This document shows, in pieces, positions 1 through 34,267 of a DNA stretch of 64,000 nucleotides. The notes beneath the pieces are model-generated. The model was not told the DNA's origin. It did no database searches and was given only the letters and a program-made list of their open reading frames with translations. The stretch lies in IMG/VR virus record IMGVR_UViG_3300011008_000022. One strand, given 5' to 3'. Each line of letters opens with the position of its first letter. Position 1 is the stretch's first letter. The stretch is from a virus. Both the position numbers and the translations under genes were made by a program.

Positions 1-83
1 GCCGTTTCTGCCGTGATTGGTCTATTTGCCCAGATTTATGTAACCCAGTGCTCGGTGATTCCGTTGCCGAGACAAAAGATTAA
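1..83 (+). CDS. 3' end of an upstream ORF (partial, runs off window start)
   Basis: Frame 3 is open from the window edge to TAA at 81-83 (..CPDLCNPVLGDSVAETKD*). The tail is encoded by a copy of the VLGDSVAE hairpin element (51-71). Confidence 0.35.
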   Translation, partial: RFCRDWSICPDLCNPVLGDSVAETKD

Positions 84-130
84 CCACCGTGCCCAGCCGT
101 TCTCGGCTGGGTCTAATAACCCAAAGTAAT

Positions 131-592
131 ATGGAAAAAGAACAAATGAATTTTGATGTTCAGGCCGCTAAGTATCTCGGCCAGATTGAGAAAAAAGAAG
201 TGTATAACCAGGGCGATATGGAAACATGTTTCGTTACTGGTTGTATGGTTGCCTCTGAACTGCAGGAGGATTGTACGGGAACCTTTGGCCAGGCTATCGG
301 CTCTTTGCGCCATGGTAAGCTCGTGGCACGTAAAGGATGGAATGGTAAGGGCATGTTCCTCTTTATGCGTCCTTTTGATAGTCTGGATGATAAGTTTGTC
401 ATCGATACGATGAAGTCGGCACCATTCAATTATAAAGAATGGCTGAAAAACCACCCCTCTGAGGATGGACGTGTCCTCTTCCGTGAATATATCTGTATGA
501 AGGCTGCTGATGGTTCTGTAGTGAATGGTTGGCTCGCCTCTCAGACGGATATGCTTTCTGATGACTGGGAAATTGTTGATCCTAATAAGTAA
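131..592 (+). CDS. DUF2829-like phage protein
   Basis: The ORF track gives 89-592, but the first 14 codons are a GTG read-through of hairpin 92-111; the first ATG is at 131. The motif GKLVARKGWNGKGMFLF resembles the DUF2829 family, recognised from memory. Confidence 0.55.
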   Translation: MEKEQMNFDVQAAKYLGQIEKKEVYNQGDMETCFVTGCMVASELQEDCTGTFGQAIGSLRHGKLVARKGWNGKGMFLFMRPFDSLDDKFVIDTMKSAPFNYKEWLKNHPSEDGRVLFREYICMKAADGSVVNGWLASQTDMLSDDWEIVDPNK

Positions 593-597
593 TCGTT

Positions 598-1215
598 ATG
601 GGAGAAATCAAGGTTACTGTTCCTGATGGTAAGAAAGCCGAATGGAAAGAACTTAATGGCGTTACGGTTTTAACGCTCGTGGATGCTGATAATAACCAGC
701 AGTCAGAGTACGTCCCCGACCCTCGCCCCGTCACAGAACGCATCAAAACTTTCGAGGATGCTTGCGATGACCTCAATCGCCGTGCTCAGGCTGGCGACAA
801 ACTGGCTAACGATCTGATGACCGACCTCCAGTTTAACTCGCCACGTACACCCGACCTGCTTGCTTACATCCAACTGCGCATCATTACCTATGCCCTCAAT
901 GAAGGATGGGTGCCACAGTTTACTGAGGATGAATATCGCTACTATCCTTACTTCTACCTCTATACCCAGAAGGAGATAGACGAAATGAGTGAGGATGATA
1001 AGGCACAGCTGCTGCTCGTCGGGGGTGACGCGGCTTACGGTGCGCAATGCGGTCTCTCGTCTGCGTACTCGTCTCTCGGTTTCTCGGTCTCGCCCGCGAG
1101 CATCGGCGCTCGCCTGGCCTTCAAATCGAGCGAACTCGCGAAATACGCTGGTCGCCAATTCGCTGCGCTATGGTCGGCCCTGGTCTTCAAACCAATTCCT
1201 GAAGAGCAGAAGTAA
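598..1215 (+). CDS. DGR variable protein 2 (remote target, C-terminal C-type-lectin-like VR)
   Basis: The 205 aa ORF has codons 137-175 encoded by VR2 (1007-1122). VR2 matches TR 20052-20167 except at TR adenines. The motif QLLLVGG..G..CG......IGARLAF is shared with ORF 18497-19750. Confidence 0.85.
   Translation: MGEIKVTVPDGKKAEWKELNGVTVLTLVDADNNQQSEYVPDPRPVTERIKTFEDACDDLNRRAQAGDKLANDLMTDLQFNSPRTPDLLAYIQLRIITYALNEGWVPQFTEDEYRYYPYFYLYTQKEIDEMSEDDKAQLLLVGGDAAYGAQCGLSSAYSSLGFSVSPASIGARLAFKSSELAKYAGRQFAALWSALVFKPIPEEQK
1007..1122 (+). repeat. DGR variable region VR2
   Basis: Ungapped 116 nt alignment to TR. There are 19 mismatches, all at TR adenine positions, and all 89 non-A positions are identical. 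Confidence 0.9.
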
Positions 1216-1216
1216 T

Positions 1217-1984
1217 ATGATGAACATTGACACCATATATAACATGGATTGTCTCGAAGGTATGAGGCAGATGGAGGATAACAGCGTAGATGCTGTTATC
1301 ACTTCACCGCCTTATAACTTCGGCTTACGCATCCATTCTGGTAAATATACCAAATGGACGAAGGGTGAGACATTCGGTTATACCGGCCTCCCTGCTAATC
1401 GTTACGACAACCGTGTGAATGATGCGCTGTCAATGGATGACTATTTCAACTGGCAATGTCAGTGTATCGACGAAATGTTACGTGTCAGCAAAGGACCTGT
1501 CTTCTATAACATAATGATGATAACAGGTAATAAGGTGGCTCTGATGAAAATCTTTGGCCACTTCGCTGACCGCATCCGTGATATCCTTATCTGGGATAAG
1601 AAATCGTCTGAACCGGCCATGCACTCAGGAGTGCTCAACTGTGAGTATGAATTTATCATTGCTTTCGATAAGCACGATTGTAAAGGTCGCCAGTTTCCTC
1701 TGTTGAACGCTGAACGTGGTAAACTTTCCAATGTTTTGAGAATTGGAAAGAACCACAAAGGAGGTCATCGGGCAGCATTCCCTACCCTCTTACCTCAGAC
1801 GCTCATCCACTATTTCATGCCAATGGGGGGGGTAATTCTCGACCCTTTTCTTGGAAGCGGCACTACAGCAGTAGCAGCTATCAAAGAGAAAAGTCATTAT
1901 ATAGGCTTTGAACTTCATCCAGAGTATTTCGCAATGGCTGAGAAGAATCTCAAAATAGAATTATCACAACAAACATTATTTTAA
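1217..1984 (+). CDS. DNA methyltransferase, beta-class N4/N6 (SPPY motif)
   Basis: Starts MMNIDTIYNMDCLEGM. It has DAVITSPPYN (motif IV) upstream of ILDPFLGSGTTAVAA (motif I). The track ORF 989-1984 has an N-terminal extension that reads out of frame across VR2. Confidence 0.8.
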   Translation: MMNIDTIYNMDCLEGMRQMEDNSVDAVITSPPYNFGLRIHSGKYTKWTKGETFGYTGLPANRYDNRVNDALSMDDYFNWQCQCIDEMLRVSKGPVFYNIMMITGNKVALMKIFGHFADRIRDILIWDKKSSEPAMHSGVLNCEYEFIIAFDKHDCKGRQFPLLNAERGKLSNVLRIGKNHKGGHRAAFPTLLPQTLIHYFMPMGGVILDPFLGSGTTAVAAIKEKSHYIGFELHPEYFAMAEKNLKIELSQQTLF

Positions 1985-1985
1985 T

Positions 1986-2348
1986 ATGGAACCTATAACA
2001 GCAATTCGTAAAAAACTGCCAGATGCACTACTGGCAAAATTGGACTTTGATGTGGTTCTTTCTAAACGTCAGATCGTCGAAAAGGTAGAAGCACTTGAAC
2101 CAACCTTCGGTGGCATGGCAGTACACTATGATCATAGTGGTAAACGCCTCGAAGTTATTTGGAGTAAAACTCTCCAACAGCGATGGTTCGGCAAGTTAAG
2201 CAAAGGTCAAAAGGTCATGGTTGGCAAACAACGTGGCACTCTCGCCGATACAGGCGTTTTCTGGTGTGGTCCTGACCGTTGTGTCTCTGTTGATTTCGGC
2301 AAAGGTGGTGAAGCCTACGATATCACCAATGTAATTCCCGCCGAATAA
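1986..2348 (+). CDS. hypothetical protein
   Basis: 120 aa ORF starting 2 nt after the previous stop, in the same-strand operon. No motif recognised. Confidence 0.6.
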   Translation: MEPITAIRKKLPDALLAKLDFDVVLSKRQIVEKVEALEPTFGGMAVHYDHSGKRLEVIWSKTLQQRWFGKLSKGQKVMVGKQRGTLADTGVFWCGPDRCVSVDFGKGGEAYDITNVIPAE

Positions 2349-2403
2349 TGTCCCGTTTCTTGTATGTCGCGATTCTATTGCGACCTTTAAACCTCAAAAT
2401 CCC

Positions 2404-2649
2404 ATGAATATATTTCAAACATCCAAGCATCAGGGGGGGGCAAAATCACCCTTTGCAGGCAACGGTCTCAGCCGCACCGCCATGATCTTCAAAATTGCTA
2501 CGATTGCTGGTCACAAACTGACGGTGCCTGAAATGAATAAGTTTAAAGAGGTCAATCCTCGAAGTCTTGAACGAGTATATAACGAAGTAGTCCGTGTAGG
2601 CGATGCTGGTAACGCTCTTTTCGCCCTCCGGCTCATCTTAAAGAATTAA
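2404..2649 (+). CDS. hypothetical protein
   Basis: 81 aa ORF preceded by leader hairpin 2366-2384 with a 19 nt spacer. Confidence 0.5.
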   Translation: MNIFQTSKHQGGAKSPFAGNGLSRTAMIFKIATIAGHKLTVPEMNKFKEVNPRSLERVYNEVVRVGDAGNALFALRLILKN

Positions 2650-2651
2650 CA

Positions 2652-3215
2652 ATGGAGAAAAAGAAAAACTATCGCGTCTATATAGCGCTCGACCTCGTGA
2701 CAGAGGACGAAGGCAAAAGCCTTGCTATGGTCAACATCCGACGGATGTCTAACGAACCATGCCCCATGCCCGTAATGACCGCATTCATGCAGGGTATGAG
2801 CAAACTGGCTCCCAAGGTGATGATTACCCAGCAGCCATCTTACGGCAAAGACAACCAGCGGGTCCTGGCATCGCCTGCAGATGACTTCGATTGTGACGAT
2901 TACGAGAAGGGTACGCCAGAAGGCCGTTGTGATGGCATGGGCCATTACCTCTGCGATGAATGTAAGTGGCGTAACCCTGAGTCTATTCGTCAGAAGCACG
3001 AAGACTGGATGCGTCACATGGCACATAAAAAGGATTTGCCCAAGATCCGTGCCCGTGTCATCGACACCGACGAGGAAGTGCTGGTTGATGATCACCCCAT
3101 CGACTTCTTCCACACCACATACTATAACATGTGGCACAACACCGAGAATGGGATGACATACCATGATGATGACCTCGAATTTATCGACGAACGTTTGCAA
3201 AAGATAAAGCAATGA
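2652..3215 (+). CDS. hypothetical protein (Cys/His- and acid-rich)
   Basis: 187 aa ORF. Its stop overlaps the next start (ATGA at 3212-3215). Confidence 0.6.
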   Translation: MEKKKNYRVYIALDLVTEDEGKSLAMVNIRRMSNEPCPMPVMTAFMQGMSKLAPKVMITQQPSYGKDNQRVLASPADDFDCDDYEKGTPEGRCDGMGHYLCDECKWRNPESIRQKHEDWMRHMAHKKDLPKIRARVIDTDEEVLVDDHPIDFFHTTYYNMWHNTENGMTYHDDDLEFIDERLQKIKQ

Positions 3216-3823
3216 ATAAGTTACGCTCTATCCGTTTCCGTCAGGCTCTCACCCAACTTATCATCGAGGGACTGAAGGATAACACACGCCGACTGACTAC
3301 CGATCGCCAGTATGACGTGGGCGAAGTCCTGGCTATTTCCGAAGCCTACGGTTTCATCTATCGCGGTCTTCCTGATGTAGAGAAACAAGCCTACCTCAAT
3401 CGCCTAAAACGTGAACTCGATTGTGAAGACCCTACCCGTCATCCTGGCTGGGAAAACAAACTCTACGTGCGTCCAGAACTGATGCAGCATCGTATAGAAA
3501 TCATCGAGAAGCGCAACCAGCTCCTTCAGGATATATCTGATGCCGACATTATGCGTGAGGGTATCGTTCATGGTGACGTGCCCTGCCGGAACATTGAAAC
3601 AGGCGAAGAGGGTGACTATACCTGGATAGACATCAAACGTAAGCGTCTCGCTAACGGTAAGTACCACGTCCATATCTTTCACCACGTCCATTGCAACCCT
3701 CGCGAAGCATTCGCCGACATGTTCAACAGTATCTGTGGCAAAGGCACCTGGGAAAGCAACCCTCCCGTCGTGGCCTATACCTTCAAACTCCTAAGTAAAA
3801 ATGACAATCGATTTGAATTTTAA
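3212..3823 (+). CDS. hypothetical protein (possible ASCH/PUA-like N-terminus)
   Basis: 203 aa ORF. The N-terminal LIIEGLKDNTRR loosely resembles an ASCH-type motif; this assignment is weak. Confidence 0.5.
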   Translation: MNKLRSIRFRQALTQLIIEGLKDNTRRLTTDRQYDVGEVLAISEAYGFIYRGLPDVEKQAYLNRLKRELDCEDPTRHPGWENKLYVRPELMQHRIEIIEKRNQLLQDISDADIMREGIVHGDVPCRNIETGEEGDYTWIDIKRKRLANGKYHVHIFHHVHCNPREAFADMFNSICGKGTWESNPPVVAYTFKLLSKNDNRFEF

Positions 3824-3826
3824 GCA

Positions 3827-4645
3827 ATGAAACGAAATCATATTTCCCGTGCAAAGGCCATAGATGATGGCCGCTGGGTTCAAGGCGAACTGCATACCAT
3901 GACGCATCGCCCACACATCCATATAAACGCCTTGGAGAAAGCCGACATCGATCCCGATACCATTGGGGACTACACCGGCTGGCGTGATAAGAACGATAAG
4001 CCTATCTTTGAGGGCGATATTCTCTCACTGATTATTCCTGATGGAACGGCTCGCCTGTTTGTCGTCGAATGGAAAAACCAACTGCGTCACCTGAAACCGC
4101 TCAAAGGCTTTATCGATGATAATACCCCCGTCGAAATCTCCGGCTGGTGCTTCCGCTGGGGACAGCATCACCTCTTACCCTCTTACATCGGTCATCAGCC
4201 AGACTATAAGCGCATGGAGATTGTCGGTAACATCTACGACAATGCCAACCTCCTGACGGATGATGCAGAAGAGGAAATCGAGGGCAAACGTGAGCTGATA
4301 GGGAACACTTGCTGTATCTCTGACAAACCAGGCATTCAGGTATTCATGTATGATCTGAAAGATGAGCATGGTAGATGGCTCGCTCGTGTCATTCTCACCT
4401 CTGAAGGTCTCTTTATGTCTTACTCTGAATGGGGTAACTTCTTCCATTACTTCAATGCACCAGGCAAAGACGGCATCCGTAAGTTTATGCTGGGCATCTA
4501 TGAAGACTATTTCGCTGGCAAACTCTGTGAAGTGGAATGGAATACCTCTACCACCAAAGTACGAGCTGCTGCAAAGCGTTACGTGAAGCATGTCCTTCCC
4601 GTTCTCAAAGTGGCTATTGAAAATCAGTTAAAGCAGGAAGAATAA
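3827..4645 (+). CDS. YopX-like domain protein
   Basis: YTGWRDKNDKPIFEGDIL and MEIVGNIYDN resemble conserved YopX family blocks. Confidence 0.6.
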   Translation: MKRNHISRAKAIDDGRWVQGELHTMTHRPHIHINALEKADIDPDTIGDYTGWRDKNDKPIFEGDILSLIIPDGTARLFVVEWKNQLRHLKPLKGFIDDNTPVEISGWCFRWGQHHLLPSYIGHQPDYKRMEIVGNIYDNANLLTDDAEEEIEGKRELIGNTCCISDKPGIQVFMYDLKDEHGRWLARVILTSEGLFMSYSEWGNFFHYFNAPGKDGIRKFMLGIYEDYFAGKLCEVEWNTSTTKVRAAAKRYVKHVLPVLKVAIENQLKQEE

Positions 4646-5133
4646 TGAACCAGACACAGCGCAATCCCGTAGTAAGCTCCGATGAGTGGTACACACCCAA
4701 ATGGGTCATCGAGGAGTTAGGGCCATTTGACCTCGATCCGTGTGCCCCTATGTCGCCGCCCTATGAGATTGCGCCACTCTCTTACAACAAACAGCAGGAC
4801 GGTCTCAAACAGGAATGGCCCGACACAGCACTGGTCTTTATGAACCCGCCATATAGCCGTCCGCTGCTGCGTCCATTCGTTGAGAAGTTGGCAGAGCATA
4901 ACAATGGTATCGCCTTACTGAAGAACCAGGTCGATAACCTGCTCTTTCAGGAGGTCATCTTTCCAAAGGCGAAGTCCATGATCTTCATGCGCCATCGCAT
5001 CAAGTTCCTGCAACCTGATGGCACAACAGGCTCACCGTTTTTCGGTTCCGTCCTCGTTGCTTTTGGCTTTGAAGCAGATACTCGCCTGCGCCAATCCTCG
5101 ATACAAGGTAAATATCTAATTCTTAATCGATAA
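4645..5133 (+). CDS. phage Dam-type N6-adenine DNA methyltransferase
   Basis: Motifs SDEWYTPKWVIEELGPFDLDPCA and FMNPPYSR are typical of the small phage N-6-adenine methyltransferase family. Confidence 0.75.
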   Translation: MNQTQRNPVVSSDEWYTPKWVIEELGPFDLDPCAPMSPPYEIAPLSYNKQQDGLKQEWPDTALVFMNPPYSRPLLRPFVEKLAEHNNGIALLKNQVDNLLFQEVIFPKAKSMIFMRHRIKFLQPDGTTGSPFFGSVLVAFGFEADTRLRQSSIQGKYLILNR

Positions 5134-5136
5134 AAT

Positions 5137-5460
5137 ATGCCCTACGGAGTATGTAAAATATGCGGATGCACAGACACCGACCCCTGTCACAACCCGACAC
5201 ATGGTAATTGCTGGTGGGTCGATGATACGCACGAACTGTGTTCCCACTGTGCTGAAAAAGAAATCGCTGACGATCCCGCTACTCAGCATTGTATCAATAG
5301 CAAAGGTTTTGACCCTTATGCCGGCATTCAGCGCAAAGATCTCGCCTCTCTCGGCTGTCCGTTCCCAGACGATGACGGTGCCATGTGTTCCGAATGTTCG
5401 CACAACAGCGTCAACAGCATCTTTACAGGCCAATGTGATTTAGGTATTAAAATAGTGTGA
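5137..5460 (+). CDS. hypothetical Cys-rich protein
   Basis: 107 aa ORF with several CxxC-like pairs (CKICGC, CSHC, CSEC). Confidence 0.55.
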   Translation: MPYGVCKICGCTDTDPCHNPTHGNCWWVDDTHELCSHCAEKEIADDPATQHCINSKGFDPYAGIQRKDLASLGCPFPDDDGAMCSECSHNSVNSIFTGQCDLGIKIV

Positions 5461-5467
5461 TAAATAT

Positions 5468-6013
5468 ATGAAACGTCCCCGCATCTATCTCTCAGGCCCT
5501 ATCACTGGCACTACCGACTATAAAGAGCGCTTCGAGGAAGCAGCCTTTATTGTTCAGTGTATGGGCTTTAAGCCAGTCAATCCTACCACAATGTTTGGCT
5601 GGCTGCAACCGTTGTTTTCCATTTGCCCCTATCGCTTCCAGGTCTTCGTCGATTGCATGGTACTCGCTATCTTCTGCAAGGCCATCTATCTGATGAAAGA
5701 CCACGACGCATCCAGAGGCGCACGACTCGAAAAGGCCGTGGCCGACTTCCTGAAGATGCACACTGTGCTCGCTGGTTCTGACAGCGAGAAACCAATCACA
5801 GGGGCTATGAAGGCTGTCGCCGATTTGGGCAGGGCATTCGCCTCTTTGAATGAAACAATCATCAAAGGATGGTCCGAAGAAACTAACTGCACCACTTGTG
5901 CTAACAGTCAGCAGAAAACACCGCGTGGCTACTTCTGTCCCACAACGGGCGAAACAGTCAACCGCCGTATGTGGTGTGAGGCATTCTGTCATCGTGACCC
6001 GTCTAAACAGTAA
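5468..6013 (+). CDS. DUF4406 / nucleoside 2-deoxyribosyltransferase-like protein
   Basis: N-terminal IYLSGPITGTTDYKERFEEAA..GFKPVNP and the later ASRGARLE resemble DUF4406. Confidence 0.55.
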   Translation: MKRPRIYLSGPITGTTDYKERFEEAAFIVQCMGFKPVNPTTMFGWLQPLFSICPYRFQVFVDCMVLAIFCKAIYLMKDHDASRGARLEKAVADFLKMHTVLAGSDSEKPITGAMKAVADLGRAFASLNETIIKGWSEETNCTTCANSQQKTPRGYFCPTTGETVNRRMWCEAFCHRDPSKQ

Positions 6014-6054
6014 CCGTGCCCAGCGTTTTTCCGCTGGTCCTAAATAAAAAAGTT

Positions 6055-6891
6055 ATGCTCAGAAAAGACTACCTGAAAAAGACCGTCGCACCAAAGGACG
6101 GCATCGGCATGTTCCTCGCAGAACGTGTCTGTAAAAAATGGAATGAGGATTTTGTGGATGAAGATACGCAGGAAATCGTCAGTATCGAACGTAATCAGAT
6201 CCTCTTCGACCGTGACGAGGCAGTGGACTCTAAGATGGTTAAAGACATCGAGGAGTATGGTATCACGGAGATTGTTGTGACCAACACACCAGGACGTGCC
6301 GAGGAACTGCGCCAGTTCTACCGTCTCGTACATGTCAAAGTCACCATGAAGTCTTCCGGCTCTAAGATGGGCGTGGTCATCTGCCGTGCTGAGTCTATGC
6401 GCCAGGCTATCGACCTCGCCACCGACTATACCGAGGGTGCCACAGAAGAGGTTTTTGGTGAACATGCTTCCTCATTCCATATCCTTGACGTGGAAATGCT
6501 CGACAACCTCACCTTCATCGGACGCACAGCTGCTGACATCCAGGCTGAAAAGGAGGCGCTGGAAAAGGATAAGGATGCACCTGTCAAGATGCCGTTCAAG
6601 GTACAGGCCACCTATGCCCGTGCCGACATGTGGGTAGATGGTACCAACAACAAGGAAGCCTTGGTAAAGAAACGTAAGTTTGTCTGCTGGGCACACGACA
6701 TCAAGGATGCCCGTTCCATCGTCACCGCATGGATCAAGAAAGATACTGAGACAGAAGTAGGCAGCAACAACCGTGAGACTCTGGTTATCGTGGCTGCTAA
6801 CCCTTTCACCGTGCATACCTACCTCCCTGCTGCTGTCTGCAACGAATATATCACTAACGAAGAACTGAAATTGAAAACCGAAGATGAATAG
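6055..6891 (+). CDS. hypothetical protein
   Basis: Track ORF 6016-6891. The first ATG after hairpin 6019-6037 is at 6055 (MLRKDYLKK). Confidence 0.65.
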   Translation: MLRKDYLKKTVAPKDGIGMFLAERVCKKWNEDFVDEDTQEIVSIERNQILFDRDEAVDSKMVKDIEEYGITEIVVTNTPGRAEELRQFYRLVHVKVTMKSSGSKMGVVICRAESMRQAIDLATDYTEGATEEVFGEHASSFHILDVEMLDNLTFIGRTAADIQAEKEALEKDKDAPVKMPFKVQATYARADMWVDGTNNKEALVKKRKFVCWAHDIKDARSIVTAWIKKDTETEVGSNNRETLVIVAANPFTVHTYLPAAVCNEYITNEELKLKTEDE

Positions 6892-6919
6892 GGTGCCCGC
6901 TGGTTCGTCCAGCGGGTAT

Positions 6920-6927
6920 TACCTTTG
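6920..6927 (+). promoter_or_regulatory. Bacteroidota-type -7 promoter box (TACCTTTG)
   Basis: Matches TAnnTTTG and lies 18 nt upstream of ATG 6945, just after hairpin 6896-6916. Confidence 0.45.
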
Positions 6928-6944
6928 CATTAAGAATATTGATT

Positions 6945-7685
6945 ATGGCTAACATCTATCTGCGTACTTCCAAATATGTGGCTGCTTTCATGCGAGCCAT
7001 CGGCGATGGTCAGTCGCTGCCAATGACTACACCTATCGAGTTCTCACAATATACAGAGGAATATGTGGTGTTCACCAATGGACTGCGTATTGTGCCTGAA
7101 GCACAACAGCATCGTGCCTCATGCTACTCACAGTCTTCATGGCAGAACATGCTCCGTGGCCGACTGCCTAACGGTGGCAAACCAATCATCAATCGCAATC
7201 CTGATGACTATCTCACCTATGCTGAGATATGTACGCTGGAACGATTGCCCAACAAAACAAAGACGGAGGCTTACGAGTTCCTGTGTATAGCCGTGCCTCG
7301 TGAGGTCTTCATCGACGGACGGGTACAGCGCATCAGCAAGTCATATACGCTCGATACTCGTGCGGCCAACCAACTGCGCCAGATACTACGCAATAACTTC
7401 ATTCGTCGTTATATGGATTTCGTGGAGAAAAACGAGATCTTTGCAAAGGCTAATCATATCGAACGCTCTAACGTGGAAATACTGGAGCGCTTCCTCATGG
7501 AATACGACATACCTGTGTCGCACAATCAGAACGAACGAGAGGGATTGCGTCGCCTCTCCTATCGATGGAAACAGGAGGCTCGCCAACTGGTCAAAGATCC
7601 TACCATTATCGGCAACGATTTGATTACGCGCATCGATAAACATGAGCGCTATGGTGGCCTACCTAAATATGATGATGAGAAATAA
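6945..7685 (+). CDS. hypothetical protein
   Basis: The track starts at TTG 6939; the first ATG is at 6945 (MANIYLRTSKY). No motif recognised. Confidence 0.65.
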   Translation: MANIYLRTSKYVAAFMRAIGDGQSLPMTTPIEFSQYTEEYVVFTNGLRIVPEAQQHRASCYSQSSWQNMLRGRLPNGGKPIINRNPDDYLTYAEICTLERLPNKTKTEAYEFLCIAVPREVFIDGRVQRISKSYTLDTRAANQLRQILRNNFIRRYMDFVEKNEIFAKANHIERSNVEILERFLMEYDIPVSHNQNEREGLRRLSYRWKQEARQLVKDPTIIGNDLITRIDKHERYGGLPKYDDEK

Positions 7686-7820
7686 GAATTTTCAATGTAA
7701 AAAAGTTCAAAATCAAACAACAAAAAAGATTAAAAACAACTGTATTTTCGTGTTTTTTATGTTGACAGTGTGTCACGTTCTATTGCAGAATTTAAATAAC
7801 CCCATAAAAAAAGTACAATT

Positions 7821-8312
7821 ATGAACGATTTGAATTGCCGTGAGTCCCGTTTGGATGATATCGTTCGCATCGATATCTATCCGGCTTCCCAATGCTCCAT
7901 CCCTGTGCCGCCAACCATCAGCATTCAGTCTTTGGTGGAAAACAACTTTTTCTCTGGTACACCGGCTTTGTCGGTGGCGCTCTCTGTGTCGGAAGAGACT
8001 GAGGGCGAAATGACGGACGCTCCTACACTGAAGGTTTCAACAGGTCGCCAACAGGCAGGAACAGTCTATAAGCATGATTTGCAAATCCCGCTGAAAAACG
8101 ACAAAACCCTTGCAGAAAGGGCTGTTGACGCATTGCAGGGGCACGATTTCCATTGTGTCTATACACATGCTGACGGTGCCAGGGATATGTCCTACGCACT
8201 TCCTAATGCCAGCACCATAGACATCGACGAACAGCTGTCATCCAATTCGTCTGTCATCGTCAAAGTGAAGGTGGCTTCCATGTCGCATCCAGTCATACTC
8301 TCCGCCTCCTAA
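7821..8312 (+). CDS. hypothetical protein
   Basis: 163 aa ORF preceded by an AT-rich 135 nt gap that holds inverted repeat TGACA-GTG-TGTCA at 7763-7775. Confidence 0.6.
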   Translation: MNDLNCRESRLDDIVRIDIYPASQCSIPVPPTISIQSLVENNFFSGTPALSVALSVSEETEGEMTDAPTLKVSTGRQQAGTVYKHDLQIPLKNDKTLAERAVDALQGHDFHCVYTHADGARDMSYALPNASTIDIDEQLSSNSSVIVKVKVASMSHPVILSAS

Positions 8313-8378
8313 TATATATATAATGTATAGGGTGCCCAGCGATTCAGTCGCTGGTGTCTCTCCGCTCCTACCACCCAG

Positions 8379-8405
8379 CCCAGCCGTTCTCGGTTGGGCT
8401 TTTTT
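8379..8405 (+). terminator. hairpin plus T-tract (rho-independent terminator candidate)
   Basis: CCCAGCCG-TTCT-CGGTTGGG followed by CTTTTTT. Confidence 0.6.
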
Positions 8406-8531: not shown

Positions 8532-10169
8532 ATGAATGGACTACTCGAAATTCTGTCAACGAAGAAGTGGATGATCATGCCGGAGTACGTGCATGGCTCT
8601 CGCACCATGTGGGAACAGAACCTCAATGGTCATATCGCTTTGGAGTTTGACAAAAAGAAAAAGCCATACGCCATGCAGCTCACCAAGGCTTCTGAGGATG
8701 CTGCTCCCGAAATCAAGGAGTATCAGGTAACAGAGCAAGGTAAGGTGGAAAGCCGCTGGTGGATGGAAGACATGGATGCGCCTTTCGTAAACGTCATGCC
8801 GGTGGCAGGTCCTATCACCCGTGAAGGTGGTGCTTGCTCCTATGGCTCGATGGATCTCCGCGACTGGCTCATGGAGGCTGCAAATAACGAGTTCTGTAAG
8901 GCGCATGTATTCGTTATCAACTCGCCTGGTGGTTCTGCTTGGGCTATCAACGACTTCAAACAGGCTATCGACTATGCACACGAACGCGGACAGAAGGTGT
9001 ATGCTTTCGTCGATGGTCTCTGTGCCTCTGCTGCCATGTACCTGGCTTCTCAGTGTGACGAGGTTTATTACATGCACCCTAAAGACATGTTTGGCTCTAT
9101 CGGTGTCATGGCTGTGTTCTACACCGAAAAGAACGGTACGACCAACAAGTACACCAACGAGACGTTCCACGAACTCTACGACCCAGAGTCCTACGATAAG
9201 AATAAGTGGTACCGCGACCTCGCCGATGACCCGAAGAATGATAAGGTGCTCATCGACGAACTGAAAGAGGATGGTATTCAGTTCCGTGCCGACATTCAAA
9301 AGGCTTTCCCTGCTGCTAAGGAAGAGCATATCCATGGAAAGGTCTTCGAGGCTGAAAAGGTCAAGGGCATCCTTTGTGATGGTCAGATGACGCTTGGTGA
9401 GGTCATCACCCGTGCTTTCGAGGTGGCCAACGGCACCGCTACGCCGATTGAGCGCGTCGCTCCTGTCGCTCCTGAAGATGATGTACCCGAACAGGACCCT
9501 GCACCAGCAGCCGAAGCTGCCACCGCTGCCACTCCTGCCACGGATGCCACTGTGCTTGGTGGTTCTGCCACCGAGGGAGAAAAGAATAACCCTTTAAACA
9601 ACGAGAATATGAAACAGTACGAAAAGATTGCCACCGCATGTGGCGTAGATGAGCTGGTAGTGAACGCCGAGGGTGCTCACTTCGTGCCCGACATGCTCGA
9701 AGCACTTAACCAGACACTTGAGACAAATGCCAAGGAAAAGGCTGATGCTCAGACGTTGATCCAGAGCCTGAAGACACAGGTCGGCCAGGTTGAGACTACT
9801 AAGAACGATGCCGTCTCTGCTCGTGAGAAGGAATTGAACGATGCACACGAGCAAGCCATCAACACGCTCAAAGAGGAGCACACCACTGCACTCAATGCAG
9901 AGATTGCTGCTCGCGAGAAGGCTGAGAAGGAACTGAAAGAGGTGAAAGACCAACTGGCTACTGCTAACCAGACCATCACCGACCAGAAGGGACAGATTGA
10001 GCAACTGACAACGGCTGCTGCCGCTGTACCTGCCGGCTCTCCCGCTAACAATGGTCAGGGTGCTCAGGAGCAGAAGGTAGAGGGTGGTATGCCTGCATAC
10101 GACCACACCAAGTCGCCTCTGGAGAACCAGCGCATCCGTAAGGAGTACATGGCTAAGATCAGCGGCTAA
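8532..10169 (+). CDS. S49 (SppA/ClpP-fold) prohead protease fused to a coiled-coil scaffolding domain
   Basis: VFVINSPGGSAWAINDF...GLCASAAMYLASQCD...GSIGVM match S49 peptidase blocks. The C-terminal 185 aa are E/K/Q/A-rich and coiled-coil-like. The gene lies immediately upstream of the capsid candidate. Confidence 0.8.
   Translation: MNGLLEILSTKKWMIMPEYVHGSRTMWEQNLNGHIALEFDKKKKPYAMQLTKASEDAAPEIKEYQVTEQGKVESRWWMEDMDAPFVNVMPVAGPITREGGACSYGSMDLRDWLMEAANNEFCKAHVFVINSPGGSAWAINDFKQAIDYAHERGQKVYAFVDGLCASAAMYLASQCDEVYYMHPKDMFGSIGVMAVFYTEKNGTTNKYTNETFHELYDPESYDKNKWYRDLADDPKNDKVLIDELKEDGIQFRADIQKAFPAAKEEHIHGKVFEAEKVKGILCDGQMTLGEVITRAFEVANGTATPIERVAPVAPEDDVPEQDPAPAAEAATAATPATDATVLGGSATEGEKNNPLNNENMKQYEKIATACGVDELVVNAEGAHFVPDMLEALNQTLETNAKEKADAQTLIQSLKTQVGQVETTKNDAVSAREKELNDAHEQAINTLKEEHTTALNAEIAAREKAEKELKEVKDQLATANQTITDQKGQIEQLTTAAAAVPAGSPANNGQGAQEQKVEGGMPAYDHTKSPLENQRIRKEYMAKISG
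9609..10169 (+). CDS. candidate nested in-frame scaffolding protein (internal start)
   Basis: ATG 9609 is in frame with 8532. It is preceded by hairpin 9555-9575 and TAACCCTTTAAA (9587-9598), which together look like an intergenic junction. Confidence 0.35.
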   Translation: MKQYEKIATACGVDELVVNAEGAHFVPDMLEALNQTLETNAKEKADAQTLIQSLKTQVGQVETTKNDAVSAREKELNDAHEQAINTLKEEHTTALNAEIAAREKAEKELKEVKDQLATANQTITDQKGQIEQLTTAAAAVPAGSPANNGQGAQEQKVEGGMPAYDHTKSPLENQRIRKEYMAKISG

Positions 10170-10210
10170 AAATGAATTTCAAGTTATTAACCCTTTAAAA
10201 AATCAAAGTT

Positions 10211-11488
10211 ATGCCTAACAACAACAACGCACCTGAGTTCATCGGACGTGAGGCACTGACTCACGTAGCCGAGCAAGTAGGTAAGCAGATCGTTATGGGT
10301 CCTGCCTACGAAGATCCTGAGTTGCTCGACCGCCTCGGCATTCAGGTAATTTCTGGCGTTCAGTACAAGAAAACTGACCATCTGCTCGTCCGCAAGGGTG
10401 GCACTACCCGTCGTAAGAAGGTAGGTACACCTGTGGAGAACAAGATTGGTTTCTTGAAGGAGCGCACCCTGGTCGCAAAGCTGACCTGGAACCGTTACCG
10501 CGACAACATCGACAACTATGTTGAGACTGTCTTTGGTACCGACGGTAAGGCCGGTGGCGACTATCCTCTCTCTACGGTCGCATGTGAGGCCATCCTGAAG
10601 TCGTATGCCGAGGATTTGAAGTCTAACCTCTTCTTCGGTAACATGGAGTATGAGGAAGAGAATGACGAAGCCAAGCAGAAGCTCTCTCTCTACGATGGTT
10701 TCCACACCGACATTGCTCACGACATCGCAGATGGTATCATCAGCGAGACCAACGGCAACCTCATTCCTTGTGATGCTATCGGAGTTCCTGAAGACGCTCA
10801 TGACTCGACTCCTTTCGACACCGTTCTGGAGTGGTACACCAAGTGGGATGCTCGTCTGCGCTCTCAGAAGGTAATCAAGCTCCATTGTGACATTCTGCGC
10901 GGTATCTATATCGCCCAGGGTTACACTAACAAGTATCACGGCAATGCTAAGGTGAATTATTTGCCTAACGGCAACTTCACCGTGCCTGAGATGCCTCGTG
11001 TTGAGTTCTGTCCTTCTGACGCTTGGGGTGTTGGTACTCGTCTCATGGCGACTATTCCTAACAACCTCCAGTATGGCGTGGATTCTGAGAACAACCAGAC
11101 CTTCGTAAAGGTACAGTTCGGTTCTGACGACGATGCTCAGGATGTAATCTTCCAGATTCAGTCTATCCAGGGTACTCGTATCTTCAACCCATTGGCTTCT
11201 GCATTCGTTATCAGCGATGGTTCGATTGCCGAGAACGTCATCAATGGTGACTACGAGAACTCTAAGCTCGTCGTGAATATCGACGGTACTGGTACCGTTA
11301 AGGTGAATAACGAGGCTTATAACACGCCGCTGGAGTTCGCTCCTAACGCTATCGTAACGCTGAAGGCTATTCCTGGTAACAACCAGAAGTTTGTCTCTTG
11401 GAGCAACGGCAAGACCGACACTGAGATTTCTATCACAGCAACAGGTATGCCGATGGCTATCACCGCATTCTTCGCTCCTGACGAGTAA
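10211..11488 (+). CDS. major capsid protein candidate
   Basis: 425 aa ORF directly after the protease/scaffold gene, preceded by the TAACCCTTTAAA motif. Assignment rests on synteny and size only. Confidence 0.5.
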   Translation: MPNNNNAPEFIGREALTHVAEQVGKQIVMGPAYEDPELLDRLGIQVISGVQYKKTDHLLVRKGGTTRRKKVGTPVENKIGFLKERTLVAKLTWNRYRDNIDNYVETVFGTDGKAGGDYPLSTVACEAILKSYAEDLKSNLFFGNMEYEEENDEAKQKLSLYDGFHTDIAHDIADGIISETNGNLIPCDAIGVPEDAHDSTPFDTVLEWYTKWDARLRSQKVIKLHCDILRGIYIAQGYTNKYHGNAKVNYLPNGNFTVPEMPRVEFCPSDAWGVGTRLMATIPNNLQYGVDSENNQTFVKVQFGSDDDAQDVIFQIQSIQGTRIFNPLASAFVISDGSIAENVINGDYENSKLVVNIDGTGTVKVNNEAYNTPLEFAPNAIVTLKAIPGNNQKFVSWSNGKTDTEISITATGMPMAITAFFAPDE

Positions 11489-11567
11489 TCTCCTCTCTCA
11501 TAGTGCCCAGCCTCTCTCGGCTGGGTACTTATAAACACTAAACGTCAAATATTAAAATTTCAAGATT

Positions 11568-18496: not shown

Positions 18497-19750
18497 ATGA
18501 AGAAAGCAAAGACATTCCTCAACCCTGGTGAAGGCATCGCTCGCGTGTTGTGTGTCACCAGTGCCAGCAACTTCTACGAGGCGCTGCCATCTGAGGTTGC
18601 AAATGCGGCCATCCCCTCTACGGTGGTCGGTGCGCTCGCTTCCAAACACACGTTGGAAGAAAACTCTAACCCTGCATTCACGGTCAATAATCGTGGTGCT
18701 GCAGAACTCTATCAGACTCAGATGGGTGGCTATATGTTCTTCCGTAAAGACGGAAAAGTGTATGCTGCCAAACTGAATGGTTCTACATGGGATAAGTTCG
18801 CAGATGCGACTCCTGTCACAGCTGCTATCGAAGCAGCCTGTGAAACGATGATCCATGTGCCTGACTGTAACTATCTCGGAGAGAACAAAACTCTGAACTT
18901 TGGCGGTCTCGTGCCTATCGATGGTGGCCATATCTTTGGCTCACCTCATTGGGTAGGTGCTTACCTGATGTCTGTCGATGGTGGCGGTGCCGGACACTCA
19001 CGCCCGAACGTGGCTCCTGGTCATTCTAAGACGATGAGTGCATTCTGGAACTGCGCACAGCAGCTCGGCACACAATGGGGATTGGCCAACTATGGTTTCT
19101 TCTGTCTCATCAATGCGCTTTTCCAGGCTCGCTATGGCTCTCTGAACTCGCAGGAGGTCATTGGTGCCGGATTCCAGACAAGTTCATGGGAGGCGGCTCG
19201 TAACGTGCCTATGGGCCTCTGTAAGTCGCTGGGTGATGGCTCTGGTAAGGTGTTCTACACCGATGCTACCATTGGCGACCAATATCCTGTAAAACTCTTC
19301 GGTTTCGAGGATCTATGGGGTAAGCTGTGGGAGTCCCGTCCTGGCATCCGCTTTGAAATGCGCGATAACGTGCGCTATGCTATCGTCTATGATGGCAACG
19401 TCGTCAGCAATACTGCTACTGGACGTGAATTTATCTGTGCTCTCTCTTCTCAGAGTGGCAGTGGTACTTATGCTAAGAGCATGGAACTGGGCGAATACTG
19501 GGATATGATATGCCAGGCTGTTGGTGCCGGTTCTAATACATACTACTGCGACGGGTATTGGTTCGCTACGGGTGGTCAGCTGCTGCTCGTCGGGGGTGTC
19601 GCGTCTTACGGTGCGCTATGCGGTCTGTCGTGTGCGAGCTCGATTTACGGTTTCTCGGTCTCGCACACGATCATCGGCGCTCGCCTGGCCTTCTACGGAG
19701 AGCCGGAAATCGTGAGCGGTGCGGAGCTGGTGGCCATGATTAACGCGTAA
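18497..19750 (+). CDS. DGR variable protein 1 (likely receptor-binding/tail protein with C-terminal C-type-lectin-like VR)
   Basis: 417 aa ORF whose C-terminal region ..QLLLVGGVASYGALCGLSCASSIYGFSVSHTIIGARLAFY.. is encoded by VR1. It is preceded by TAACCCTTTAAA. Confidence 0.85.
   Translation: MKKAKTFLNPGEGIARVLCVTSASNFYEALPSEVANAAIPSTVVGALASKHTLEENSNPAFTVNNRGAAELYQTQMGGYMFFRKDGKVYAAKLNGSTWDKFADATPVTAAIEAACETMIHVPDCNYLGENKTLNFGGLVPIDGGHIFGSPHWVGAYLMSVDGGGAGHSRPNVAPGHSKTMSAFWNCAQQLGTQWGLANYGFFCLINALFQARYGSLNSQEVIGAGFQTSSWEAARNVPMGLCKSLGDGSGKVFYTDATIGDQYPVKLFGFEDLWGKLWESRPGIRFEMRDNVRYAIVYDGNVVSNTATGREFICALSSQSGSGTYAKSMELGEYWDMICQAVGAGSNTYYCDGYWFATGGQLLLVGGVASYGALCGLSCASSIYGFSVSHTIIGARLAFYGEPEIVSGAELVAMINA
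19578..19696 (+). repeat. DGR variable region VR1
   Basis: Ungapped 119 nt alignment to TR 20052-20170. There are 17 mismatches, all at TR adenines, and all 91 non-A positions are identical. Confidence 0.92.
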
Positions 19751-20051: not shown

Positions 20052-20170
20052 AGCTGCTGCTCGTCGGGGGTGACGCGAATAACGGTGCGCAATGCGGTCT
20101 ATCGTATGCGAACTCGAATAACGGTTTCTCGAACTCGAACACGAACATCGGCGCTCGCCTGAACATCTAC
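20052..20170 (+). repeat. DGR template region (TR)
   Basis: Non-coding copy of VR1/VR2. In the VR frame it reads ELLLVGGDANNGAQCGLSYANSNNGFSNSNTNIGARLNIY, with nine AAC/AAT codons. Confidence 0.92.
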
Positions 20171-20502
20171 ATTGAACAAAAAAGAGTTATCTGATATGTT
20201 TCCACTGTTTGTCCTCACTGACTTCGCGAAAGCCAAAGAGGATGAGCACACGATTGAGCCGGTCTCGATGGAGGGTTAGCGAGTGCAAAGCGGTTTCCCC
20301 GCTTTGTCCTCTCTACCCGACAGAGCAAAGATAAAAGGCGTTGGGTATGAGCCTGACATATAGATGCACTATCACATCGTCGGGCAACAGAGTCCCCTCG
20401 CGCAAGTAAGCAAGACAGTTGTACGTCTATACCGAACACCCGTGAGCCGAGAAATGTAGAAGGCCCTCCCTGAAATATCATGTGTCACAATGAAGAGAAA
20501 CA
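20171..20502 (+). ncRNA. TR-to-RT spacer, probable 3' part of the DGR RNA
   Basis: 332 nt with no plus-strand ORF longer than 27 codons. It contains hairpin CAAAGCGG-TTTCC-CCGCTTTG near 20287-20307. The function is inferred by analogy to the Bordetella phage BPP-1 TR-Sp RNA. Confidence 0.3.
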
Positions 20503-21849
20503 ATGGCAGAATTAGCTTATCAGCGAAAGAAACGCCTGCGCGGAAAGAACCGCAAACTACGCATCAGCATGGTCTATGACCCGCTGAACCTACGTCAAGC
20601 CGACATCGAGGCACGACGTGGTAAGGATGCTCATAAAGGGGTACGTCTCTTCGACAAAGACCCGCAAGGCAATCTCTCTTTACTGCATGATTGGCTGAAG
20701 ACTGAGACCTATCATACTTCTCCTGGGCATGAGTGTGTCAGACACTGCCCATGCGGAAAGGATCGAGTGCTTCACAAGCTGCCATACTTTCCTGACCACA
20801 TCGAGAACCATGCACTGATGCAGGTCATCATGCCTACCATGATGCGGGCGTATTACTACGACTCCTCGGCATCTATCAAAGGTAAGGGTATGCACTTTGC
20901 GGAACGACGTACCAAACGATACATCGATATCCACCGCAAGCATAATGACCGCATCTATTTCGTCAAACTGGATTTCGTGAAGTTCTACCATAACATCGAC
21001 CAGGAAAAGATTTACAAGCACCTGGCAAAGAAGTTTGGCGATCGGGGTGTACGCTATCTCATCCGTGAGATAGTAACGGCATGTGAAAAGGGACTGGGCA
21101 TCGGATTGTTCCCAATACAGCCTATCGCCAACTACTACACATGTCCGCTATGCCGACTGGTGATGATGCTCTTTGACGTGTGGATGGAGATATACTGCGA
21201 TGATATGGTCATCATTGGTACCGATAAGAAAGAGGTATGGAAAGCGGTAAATTTCATCCAGCAGTATGCGGAGGATGTTATGGAACAGCCACTGCATGAG
21301 AATATCGGAATGCAGATCATCGACGAACGCCACCGCCTCGATTTCGTGGGTTACATGTTTTTCTTCAAACACACGCTGCTGCGCAAGCGGATGAAAAAGA
21401 AGTTTAAGCGGAAGATGCACCGCATCAAAGACCCGCTGAAACGCTATCGCGCCGCTGCAAGTTACAAAGGATGGCTCATGCACTGCAATGGTTTTAGTCT
21501 CTGGTGTGCTGTAATGAATATGAAATCTTACAAGGAACTAAATGTACCTACATTCGAGAAAAAGAACGCAGAGGGCAAACGCATACTCGAAGGAACAAAG
21601 GTATCGGCATCGATGCTTTGTGGACGCGAGTTGGTGTTTACTGACGTGGAGTTTGACGTGAAATCGAAGTACAACAAGCCGGCAACAGTGATTCAGGTGG
21701 AGGAGAACGGACAAAAATATAAGTTCTTCACCAACAACCAGAAACTCACACAGGCGCTGTCCTACATCAATGCTCACGATGGCTTCCCGTTCAAGGGCAC
21801 AATCGTTCGCACAAACTCCTCTGGCCTACCCGACTACGCCATACAGTAG
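20503..21849 (+). CDS. DGR reverse transcriptase with about 108 aa C-terminal extension
   Basis: IGLFPIQ resembles the DGR-type [I/L]GxxxSQ motif. The catalytic YCDD is at 21193-21204. SYKGWLMHCNGFSLW resembles the usual DGR RT C-terminus at aa 320-335, but the ORF continues to aa 448. Confidence 0.88.
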   Translation: MAELAYQRKKRLRGKNRKLRISMVYDPLNLRQADIEARRGKDAHKGVRLFDKDPQGNLSLLHDWLKTETYHTSPGHECVRHCPCGKDRVLHKLPYFPDHIENHALMQVIMPTMMRAYYYDSSASIKGKGMHFAERRTKRYIDIHRKHNDRIYFVKLDFVKFYHNIDQEKIYKHLAKKFGDRGVRYLIREIVTACEKGLGIGLFPIQPIANYYTCPLCRLVMMLFDVWMEIYCDDMVIIGTDKKEVWKAVNFIQQYAEDVMEQPLHENIGMQIIDERHRLDFVGYMFFFKHTLLRKRMKKKFKRKMHRIKDPLKRYRAAASYKGWLMHCNGFSLWCAVMNMKSYKELNVPTFEKKNAEGKRILEGTKVSASMLCGRELVFTDVEFDVKSKYNKPATVIQVEENGQKYKFFTNNQKLTQALSYINAHDGFPFKGTIVRTNSSGLPDYAIQ

Positions 21850-33496: not shown

Positions 33497-34267
33497 ATGA
33501 AACAAGACAAATATTTCTTACGCTTTCAGCAGCTCTGCATTGGCATCCTGGCTCAGTCTGACAACTGCATGGAGTCACAACAGCAGTTCAAGTCTGCTCG
33601 CTCCGTTCCTGAACTGGTGACGGCATGGCAGCGATTTTGGGCGGGTGTCCTACACGAAGTACCTGAACAGGTCATCAAGGCTTTTGCTGACCTCTACCCC
33701 GTCTATCGTGATGACATTATTCGTGCCGGTGTCTATTATAACGAGGCTCCGCCTGTCGGCATCTATCCTGAAAACCCTATATCTCCCGTCTCACCCTCCG
33801 ATGCAGCCACCGTGCCCAGCGCTTCTCCGTTGGGTCCTACCACCAACGCCATGATACTCATCGGCGATGCTCCCGCCACCGTTCCCGATGATTCTCCATC
33901 GGGTGAAACAGCTTCTCCATCGGATCTCGTAATTCATGGCCGTAATCGTGTCTATGTCCTCGGCAACCTCCCCGTGACTGTCACCGACAATTCCAGCGTC
34001 CATGTCAACAGCGACCGTGCCGTAGTGACCGTATGTGGTTCTGCTCGTGCTAACATCGAACGGGGAACACTCATCGCTCGTGACCGTGCCGTAGTCAATG
34101 GCAAGGGTCTCATAACCTGCTACGACTCTACGACGATATATGTCTCTGGTGGTGTCCTGCACGATAAAGGACACCTCGATATCATCGCCTATAACGATGC
34201 GGTCATCAACAGCTTCACCAACCGTCGCATCAAACTCAACGACCAGGCAATCCTGAACATCGAATAA
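33497..34267 (+). CDS. hypothetical protein, C-terminal beta-helix-like repeats
   Basis: The first ATG after hairpin 33461-33480 is at 33497. It has repetitive V.V..(N/D) segments. In-frame hairpin elements lie at 33815-33834 and 33884-33903. Confidence 0.6.
   Translation: MKQDKYFLRFQQLCIGILAQSDNCMESQQQFKSARSVPELVTAWQRFWAGVLHEVPEQVIKAFADLYPVYRDDIIRAGVYYNEAPPVGIYPENPISPVSPSDAATVPSASPLGPTTNAMILIGDAPATVPDDSPSGETASPSDLVIHGRNRVYVLGNLPVTVTDNSSVHVNSDRAVVTVCGSARANIERGTLIARDRAVVNGKGLITCYDSTTIYVSGGVLHDKGHLDIIAYNDAVINSFTNRRIKLNDQAILNIE

Follow-up and report, generated by a model that had tools for sequence, protein, structure and literature searches.

Does a diversity-generating retroelement (DGR) that diversifies a tail protein of a gut phage also serve a small protein encoded 19 kb away among DNA-modification genes, and if so, what might that protein do? 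The question is raised by a 64,000-nt stretch of the IMG/VR virus record IMGVR_UViG_3300011008_000022, hereafter called the window, to whose positions all coordinates refer. A single template repeat (TR) lies there beside a reverse transcriptase (RT) gene and has two counterparts in coding sequence, namely the variable repeats VR1, in the gene of a tail protein (target 1), and VR2, in an open reading frame (ORF) for a small variable protein (target 2). Our analysis indicates that the target 2 ORF is very probably an active remote target of this DGR, addressed through the repeat that it shares with target 1 and through an end of that repeat resembling an initiation of mutagenic homing (IMH) site. 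What target 2 does is a more tentative matter, on which its gene neighbourhood and its fused relatives bear.

The TR aligns with VR2 without gaps over 116 nt; all 19 mismatches fall among the 27 TR adenines, and the 89 non-adenine positions are identical (89/89). Such a restriction to adenines has a hypergeometric chance probability of P = 7.7e-16. VR1 differs from the TR at 17 positions, every one of them an adenine. Considering both repeats, 22 of the 27 TR adenines are substituted in one VR or the other or both, five stay unchanged throughout (20052, 20082, 20092, 20144 and 20147) and 14 are changed in both, with the same base at 8/14, including 20162, 20163 and 20165. The counts for VR2 and for the two repeats together had first been made in an analysis of the letters alone (the sequence-only reading), and re-extraction and re-alignment of the repeats reproduced every one of them, including the confinement to adenines in VR2 (19/19). 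The excess of same-base changes was considered as a signal of its own and discarded, as it is gone once the three fixed IMH positions are left out (5/11 versus ~3.7 expected). Relative to the TR, VR1 and VR2 have one and the same reading frame, which places 25/27 TR adenines at codon positions 1 or 2, the usual design of DGRs. VR2 corresponds to aa 137-175 of target 2. BLASTP aligns aa 136-175 of target 2 with aa 360-399 of target 1 (29/40 identical) and yields no other significant similarity, so that the VR scaffold is the sole part common to the two proteins, as had been proposed.

A chance match between TR and VR2, or an assembly chimera of two phages, would offer a trivial explanation. Beyond the general risk attached to metagenomic assemblies nothing speaks for it. 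The probability of ~8e-16 stands against a chance match, and both targets, ~20 kb apart, recur on three independent IMG/VR contigs from different samples. The layout is also found in the sequenced LoVEphage (MW660583), which has been obtained by induction of cultured isolates as well. We regard the probability of this explanation as negligible. The features of the window are listed in the table.

Table. Features of the DGR, its two targets and the surrounding genes in the window
Feature	Position	Strand	Description
Tad2 / AcrIIA7 (HgmTad2)-type signal-sponge homologue, upstream neighbour of target 2	131-592	+	PF11195 E 3e-22
Target 2, 205-aa small variable protein	598-1215	+	phrog_11581 E 8.8e-47
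VR2, remote variable repeat	1007-1122	+	19/19 TR mismatches at adenines; hypervariable at TR-A codons in 54 homologues
IMH-like 3' end of VR2	1103-1122	+	A-free GC-rich block TCGGCGCTCGCCTG, then GCCTTC (TR: AACATC)
N6/N4 DNA methyltransferase, downstream neighbour of target 2	1217-1984	+	PF01555 E 3.9e-30; phrog_67
Dam-type DNA adenine methyltransferase, same block	4645-5133	+	PF05869 E 6e-13; 55-61% identical to LoVEphage Dam
Hairpin/terminator closing the early block before the virion genes	8377-8400	+	strand-specific hairpin present in 21 copies
Target 1, 417-aa tail protein, virion module	18497-19750	+	phrog_5302 'tail protein' E 1.3e-36; flanking tail-like ORFs match phrog_3267
VR1	19578-19693	+	17/17 TR mismatches at adenines
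TR	20052-20167	+	non-coding, 27 adenines; 20148-20167 at the 3' end corresponds to IMH*; relatives have a conserved TR with 29 adenines
DGR RT, 448 aa	20503-21849	+	RVT_1 E 3.9e-7; phrog_1423 E 1.8e-63

The variation among relatives of target 2 follows the adenines of the TR. Homologues of the 205-aa protein number 2787, the closest of which (86-94% identity) are encoded on contigs of ~103-106 kb; the 54 closest were aligned for the analysis of variation. Positions aa 140, 144, 146, 147, 150, 155, 157, 159, 160, 164, 166 and 168 each hold 7-15 residue types. At aa 167 (TR codon ACG) the homologues carry Ala, Thr, Ser or Pro and at aa 169 (TR codon ATC) Ile, Leu, Val or Phe, and these sets match exactly what is expected from change of a single adenine. 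Outside the TR-A codons target 2 is nearly invariant. In each of the three contigs with both targets, comparison of VR2 with its own TR gives 13-20 differences at adenine sites and 0-1 elsewhere, and that of VR1 gives 14-18 at adenine sites. An invariant VR2 beside a varying VR1, which the sequence-only reading had named as the sign of a decayed target, is thus not what the relatives show. The comparison confirms that VR2 is truly a second target of this TR and that it varies among related phages, where the two targets likewise occur together.

Further evidence comes from a natural marker in the TR. In relatives the TR codons corresponding to aa 140, 144 and 153 are AAC, AAC and CTT, compared with CTC, GAC and CTA in the window, and both window VRs carry CTC (140), G[A/T]C (144) and CT[C/G] (153). 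Judged from the frequencies among relatives (Leu140 in 6/54, GNC at codon 144 in 13/54), the joint chance of this agreement in both VRs is ~7e-4. It could have arisen by either of two routes: both VRs would have been rewritten from the window TR, or the first 26 nt of the TR would have been converted from VR2 and VR1 rewritten later. By either route VR2 would therefore be an active partner. The TR itself has changed at this end. Compared with the TR of near-identical phages (L026, L029, L035, ~9509-9550), positions 20052-20077 have lost three adenines (AAC to CTC, AAC to GAC), and the first 26 nt are now identical to VR2. The TR may thus have been back-converted from a VR or have mutagenised itself. 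In the same TR, change of a T to A (CTT to CTA) has given rise to a new diversified site that is synonymous.

Could VR2 instead be an inactive relic, or vary through recombination or gene conversion with VR1 and not through direct retrohoming? Exchange between the repeats is indeed visible in two cases. In contig IMGVR_UViG_3300038674_000117 (L035:9076-9191, L001:10410-10525) both VRs bear the same non-adenine change (TR TAT to GTT), which points to an earlier state of the TR or to exchange between the VRs. A target 2 homologue of 193 aa, P0056, continues after its VR with the C-terminus of target 1 (FYGEPIFVSGAELVAMISA), and represents either a genuine product of recombination of one VR locus with the other or a chimera created in assembly at the repeat. 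On the other side, VR2 shows 0-1 non-adenine differences from its own TR in four genomes and hence no decay, and VR1 and VR2 of one genome differ at many adenine sites. Diversified VR2 codons reach 10-15 residue types in the 54 homologues, and related families have the small protein as their sole target, encoded locally beside the RT. A relic or a product of conversion is therefore very unlikely, and VR2 is taken below as an active target.

The three TR/VR differences closest to the 3' end behave differently from the rest. The VRs read GGCCTTC at 19687-19693 and 1116-1122, the TR GAACATC at 20161-20167, and the difference is preceded by an A-free GC-rich block of 14 nt (TR 20148-20161). Among the 54 homologues codons 167 and 169 are fully diversified, while codon 174 (TR AAC) is Ala in 51/54 and codon 175 (TR ATC) is Phe in 54/54; the homing boundary therefore lies within the A-free block TCGGCGCTCGCCTG. 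All VR 3' ends found in relatives, down to 53% RT identity, read CTGGCCTTC or CTGGCTTTC, i.e. GGCCTTC or GGCTTTC (the latter in L040), and the TR 3' ends of the same relatives vary between CTGAACATC, CTGAAATTA, CTGAAATTC and CTGAATTTC (AACATC, AAATTA, AAATTC, AATTTC). More distant cassettes follow the same principle, with GTCGGTTCCCGCCTTTGC in the VR versus GTCAGTTCCCGCAATTGC in the TR. These data support the view, already raised in the sequence-only reading, that the three differences after the block constitute a fixed, putatively directional IMH-like mark and not diversification. In phage BPP-1 the IMH of the VR and the IMH* of the TR are likewise distinguished by a fixed 3' difference. The sequence 3' of GGCCTTC is wholly different between the two targets. 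As the VRs have only the 116-nt repeat in common, we infer that the targeting information must lie in this shared repeat.

In the mechanism that we propose, the RT (20503-21849) would copy the TR RNA (20052-20167) into cDNA with misincorporation opposite adenines, and the mutagenised cDNA would replace either of the two VRs. Both VRs would be recognised by the same 3' end, the A-free GC-rich block followed by GCCTTC, the differing TR 3' end (AACATC) would protect the TR from overwriting, and the 116-nt repeat itself would hold the information for targeting. The RT gene starts 336 nt downstream of the TR. Its product aligns over the full length with Brt of BPP-1 (E 2e-21), contains YCDD and has the variant signature motif IGLFPIQ, aligned to IGSLTSQ of Brt. 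Adenine-restricted TR/VR differences, an RT gene by the TR, a VR at the 3' end of a coding target, a putative directional 3' mark and ongoing diversification are thus all present and identify the system as a DGR. An Rfam search of the TR-RT region gave no match. The spacer between TR and RT contains an imperfect 20-nt inverted repeat (80% complementary, 20274-20318), ~110 nt 3' of the TR, that could be part of a DGR RNA needed for priming.

The system shares much with the Mtd/Avd/TR/Brt cassette of BPP-1: adenine-specific mutagenic retrohoming, a homologous RT, a GC-rich block followed by fixed TR/VR differences in the role of IMH and IMH*, and the ..S.S...IGAR motif at the end of the VR, which target 2 has in common with Mtd. 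In contrast to BPP-1, the window holds two unrelated targets, one of them 19 kb off and not a tail protein. A parallel for a TR that diversifies two proteins of different architecture is given by the adjacent targets (tentaclins) of gut-phage DGRs (Baykov et al. 2023, PMC10743442). Each of the two, however, is encoded within the DGR cassette and read as a receptor-binding protein, whereas the second target of the window is remote and non-structural.

The sequence-only reading had called the combination of a virion target with a small distant one unusual for a phage DGR. This does not hold, since the layout has been published. In Quimbyvirus one VR follows the tail-fibre genes and a second lies in a non-structural protein (Benler 2021, PMC8008677), and the same two-target layout is found in four cultured prophage species of Bacteroidota (Nature 2025, PMC12629997). 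The LoVEphage TR (49385, minus strand) has 29 adenines; its VR1 lies in the tail collar fibre and its distal VR at 34000 on the plus strand. This distal VR, in the 194-aa protein QVQ57199.1, matches the LoVEphage TR 15 kb away, and by tblastn QVQ57199.1 is 50% identical to target 2 over aa 47-192. Quimbyvirus and LoVEphage thus resemble the window in having one TR and RT for a tail-fibre VR and for a distal VR, the latter in a small non-structural protein whose gene has those of DNA methyltransferases nearby. The phages themselves differ. Matches of LoVEphage by tblastn are limited to target 2, Dam, target 1, RT and two tail proteins, and with only these six the assignment of the window to the Quimbyviridae was rejected. 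The lineage of the window phage has genomes of ~105 kb compared with 71-75 kb; its RT is a single 448-aa ORF, whereas the Quimbyvirus RT is described as frameshifted and that of LoVEphage is annotated as a fragment of 272 aa. In the window, TR and distal target share a strand, whereas in LoVEphage they lie on opposite strands. A megablast search of window positions 1-8000 against GenBank phages gave no match, and the lineage stays unclassified because most window proteins lack a PHROG match. Relatives are found in metagenome-assembled genomes of Bacteroidota.

What kind of protein, then, is target 2? Its N-terminal part forms a beta-hairpin (aa 12-29), after which come a helical core (aa 45-100), the VR (aa 137-175) and, at the C-terminus, helices (aa 178-196). 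In the VR, ~12 diversified residues sit on an Mtd-like scaffold, GG..A..G..CG...S.S...IGARL. The match to phrog_11581, a family of unknown function, spans aa 39-196, and together with the LoVEphage homology it assigns target 2 to a family of distal targets in Bacteroidota phages, that of phrog_11581 and Quimbyvirus ORF 80/84. An exhaustive search found 1322 clusters of this family at 50% identity, mostly proteins of 160-220 aa. The conserved family core comprises aa 44-200. N-termini vary: some members have a short beta-hairpin, like target 2, others a Tad2-like domain or a different domain of ~130 aa. Pfam gave no match in target 2, and in particular no DUF2829 (Tad2) domain. Since Benler 2021 (PMC8008677) reports C-type lectin domains by HHpred for the Quimbyvirus targets, and given the VR motif, a C-type lectin fold of target 2 is plausible. 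The AlphaFold2 model (150 sequences) has an overall pLDDT of 83, which falls below 50 across aa 142-164. Foldseek against BFVD retrieved only uncharacterised gut-phage proteins of the target 2 family, and sequence and profile searches of the PDB with target 2, its family profiles and target 1 yielded nothing meaningful. No N-terminal hydrophobic segment is seen on direct reading of the sequence, and target 2 is predicted to be a small cytoplasmic protein without signal peptide. The helical segment aa 65-111 is matched by 32 stretches of a giant protein of 2055 aa (P0172).

Family members occur in several genomic settings. The genes next to them serve replication, recombination and DNA modification, and at four loci one encodes an RT. 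In L018, L019, L021 and L022 two or three members stand in tandem directly 5' of an A-rich TR and RT. In these compact cassettes (L018:5641-7701, L019:5147-7210, L021:8893-10959, L022:310-4860) the small target 2-family genes are the only targets seen and the TRs contain 21-23 adenines per 80 nt; an ORF of ~316-319 aa follows the TR in L018, L019 and L021, and RVT_1 was found in four neighbour proteins. In L007 a family member lies 9 kb from the TR on the opposite strand.

In the window, target 2 is embedded in a block of non-virion genes for DNA modification and anti-defence, in agreement with the early, DNA-modification setting given in the sequence-only reading. The gene of the downstream methyltransferase, an orphan enzyme, begins 1 nt past the target 2 stop codon (TAAtATG) and is followed by genes for YopX, Dam and DUF4406; on the upstream side, relatives carry a primase-like gene, ThyX and a radical-SAM gene. 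The block is delimited by a hairpin, CCAGCCG-TTCT-CGGCTGG, of which the window contains 21 copies, all on the plus strand, versus 0.05 expected. Two copies (93-110 and 8380-8397) bracket the early block, with none at 111-8379, and the virion genes begin at 8532. The other copies are at 11507, 13543, 16315, 17254, 21853, 22619, 23156, 29532, 33462, 34285, 38155, 41214, 41786, 43115, 43166, 43885, 52801, 59058 and 63690, and those whose position was checked are intergenic. This hairpin may partition the genome into units, acting as a terminator peculiar to the phage, as a processing site or as a regulatory element. A scan for sigma-70 promoters gave no more hits than in shuffled sequence.

The gene directly upstream of target 2 encodes a close homologue of the Tad2-type sponges (Yirmiya et al., 10.1101/2023.05.01.538930; PMC10680739). 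Its best PDB matches are AcrIIA7 (9kzr, E 1.3e-43), HgmTad2 (8kbi, E 3.8e-39) and SptTad2 (8wjd), and on reading of the alignment the ligand contacts named in PMC10680739 (WNG, R31, S47, F70, N85, W87, L88, S90, T92, D93) are conserved. HgmTad2 stems from Bacteroides phages and forms a tetramer that sequesters gcADPR and cGG/cGAMP (PMC10680739). The listed upstream ORF starts with GTG at 89, so that its first 14 codons translate the intergenic hairpin (MPSRSRLG...); translation probably begins at ATG 131 instead. Target 2 itself differs from these sponges in having no Tad2 domain, which is present in its neighbour and in the fused forms of relatives. In the sister contig L003, whose RT is 92% identical, the same slot (9635-10495) holds a 286-aa protein that combines a divergent Tad2-like domain with the target 2 core, and its VR is still matched at adenines to the L003 TR. 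A 299-aa fusion is encoded elsewhere in the early block of relative L054 (5910-6809). Fusions of a Tad2-like (DUF2829) domain to the target 2 core were seen in L003, L054 and the proteins P0057, P0074, P0079 and P0089, the cluster of P0089 alone having 413 member sequences. A full-text literature search for DUF2829 plus DGR returned no paper linking the two; the Tad2-DGR link may be a new lead, drawn from genomic association.

From the operon position, the adjacency of a Tad2 homologue together with the sister fusions, the non-structural context of the family and the lack of a signal peptide, our favoured, if tentative, interpretation is that target 2 could be an intracellular diversifiable binder in counter-defence that tracks a variable host factor. 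Alternatively, target 2 might be associated with the virion, as a decoration protein, an adhesin or a second receptor-binding module that is encoded outside the structural module and diversified for adsorption. To our knowledge, all phage DGR targets studied experimentally are receptor-binding proteins, such as Mtd of BPP-1, and this counts in favour of a virion protein, as do the identical scaffold and frame of the two VRs, a weak match of the C-terminal part of target 2 to the tail family phrog_5302 (E 5e-5) and the annotation of a distant homologue in Bacteroides phage Versailles as 'tail protein'. The phrog_5302 match, however, is limited to the VR scaffold, and no virion-attachment domain was recognised in target 2. 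The gene belongs to a block closed by a terminator hairpin ahead of the virion genes, the family neighbours are genes of replication, recombination and DNA modification, and in sister phages a Tad2-like sponge domain is fused to the target 2 core. A role in the virion thus appears improbable compared with the counter-defence role.

Several points weigh against the account of target 2 as an actively diversified binder in counter-defence. Unlike in BPP-1, no hairpin common to the 3' flanks of both VRs was found; an imperfect 13-nt inverted repeat next to VR2 (1129-1164) was considered and dropped, as VR1 has no counterpart. Also unlike in BPP-1, an Avd accessory gene was not found by inspection of the ORFs between target 1 and RT or by Pfam and PHROG searches of the flanking ORFs, and phmmer with BPP-1 Avd against the six-frame translated window gave nothing below E 1. 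Since most DGRs of crAss-like phages lack Avd (PMC12386605) and Avd is thus not universal in gut-phage DGRs, its absence does not exclude membership. With regard to the fold, hhalign of the family profile with BPP-1 Mtd gave a probability of 2% over 13 aligned columns, Foldseek of both AlphaFold2 models against the PDB gave no match at E<=0.001, and there is neither a fold nor a sequence match in the PDB for a C-type lectin fold, with the VR part of the model being of low confidence. For diversification inside one population, the evidence consists of differences between metagenomes. A counter-defence role would rest on gene neighbourhood and domain fusion, and the LoVEphage homologue of target 2 has no Tad2 neighbour: LoVEphage has neither the AcrIIA7/HgmTad2 gene upstream, as in the window, nor a Tad2-like fusion, as in the sister phages of the window.

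Further genes were observed outside the DGR and its targets. A close relative encodes a beta-ketoacyl synthase (L001:3385-4617; PF00109/PF02801), an unusual phage auxiliary gene, 5-6 kb upstream of the target 2 block, with the primase-like, ThyX and radical-SAM genes downstream of it in the same stretch. Additional genes of DNA modification and repair are found late in the window, for a 502-aa protein with a methyltransferase-like N-terminus (phrog_32703; 53588-55096) and for an NAD-dependent DNA ligase (57808-59442).

A distal second VR near methyltransferases is known already from Quimbyvirus, LoVEphage and four cultured Bacteroidota prophages, and the role of non-structural phage DGR targets is a question raised explicitly in both PMC8008677 and PMC12629997. 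New are the same layout in an unrelated, largely uncharacterised lineage of ~105 kb phages, the placement of target 2 within a large family (1322 clusters) of small non-structural DGR targets, and the close AcrIIA7/HgmTad2 sponge homologue upstream together with Tad2-like fusions to the target core in sister phages. The distal target is thus one conserved and very large protein family and not the oddity of a single phage, and the two-target DGR module recurs across unrelated phage backbones. To address a target 19 kb away, the 116-nt repeat and its 20-nt 3' end appear to suffice, and a single TR that addresses two unrelated scaffolds provides a natural example relevant to DGR engineering for targeted protein evolution. 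The adjacency and fusion to an experimentally characterised immune-signal sponge offer a concrete, testable hypothesis on target function. More speculatively, and with appreciably less confidence than for counter-defence as such, the target 2 family might comprise intracellular phage 'antibody-like' binders, not adsorption proteins, that are re-tuned by the DGR against variable host immune proteins and act together with a tetrameric Tad2-type sponge, to which they would be physically joined in sister phages. If this is true, the more than 1300 clusters at 50% identity would represent hypervariable anti-defence proteins of a class that is widespread in Bacteroidota phages and has so far gone unrecognised.

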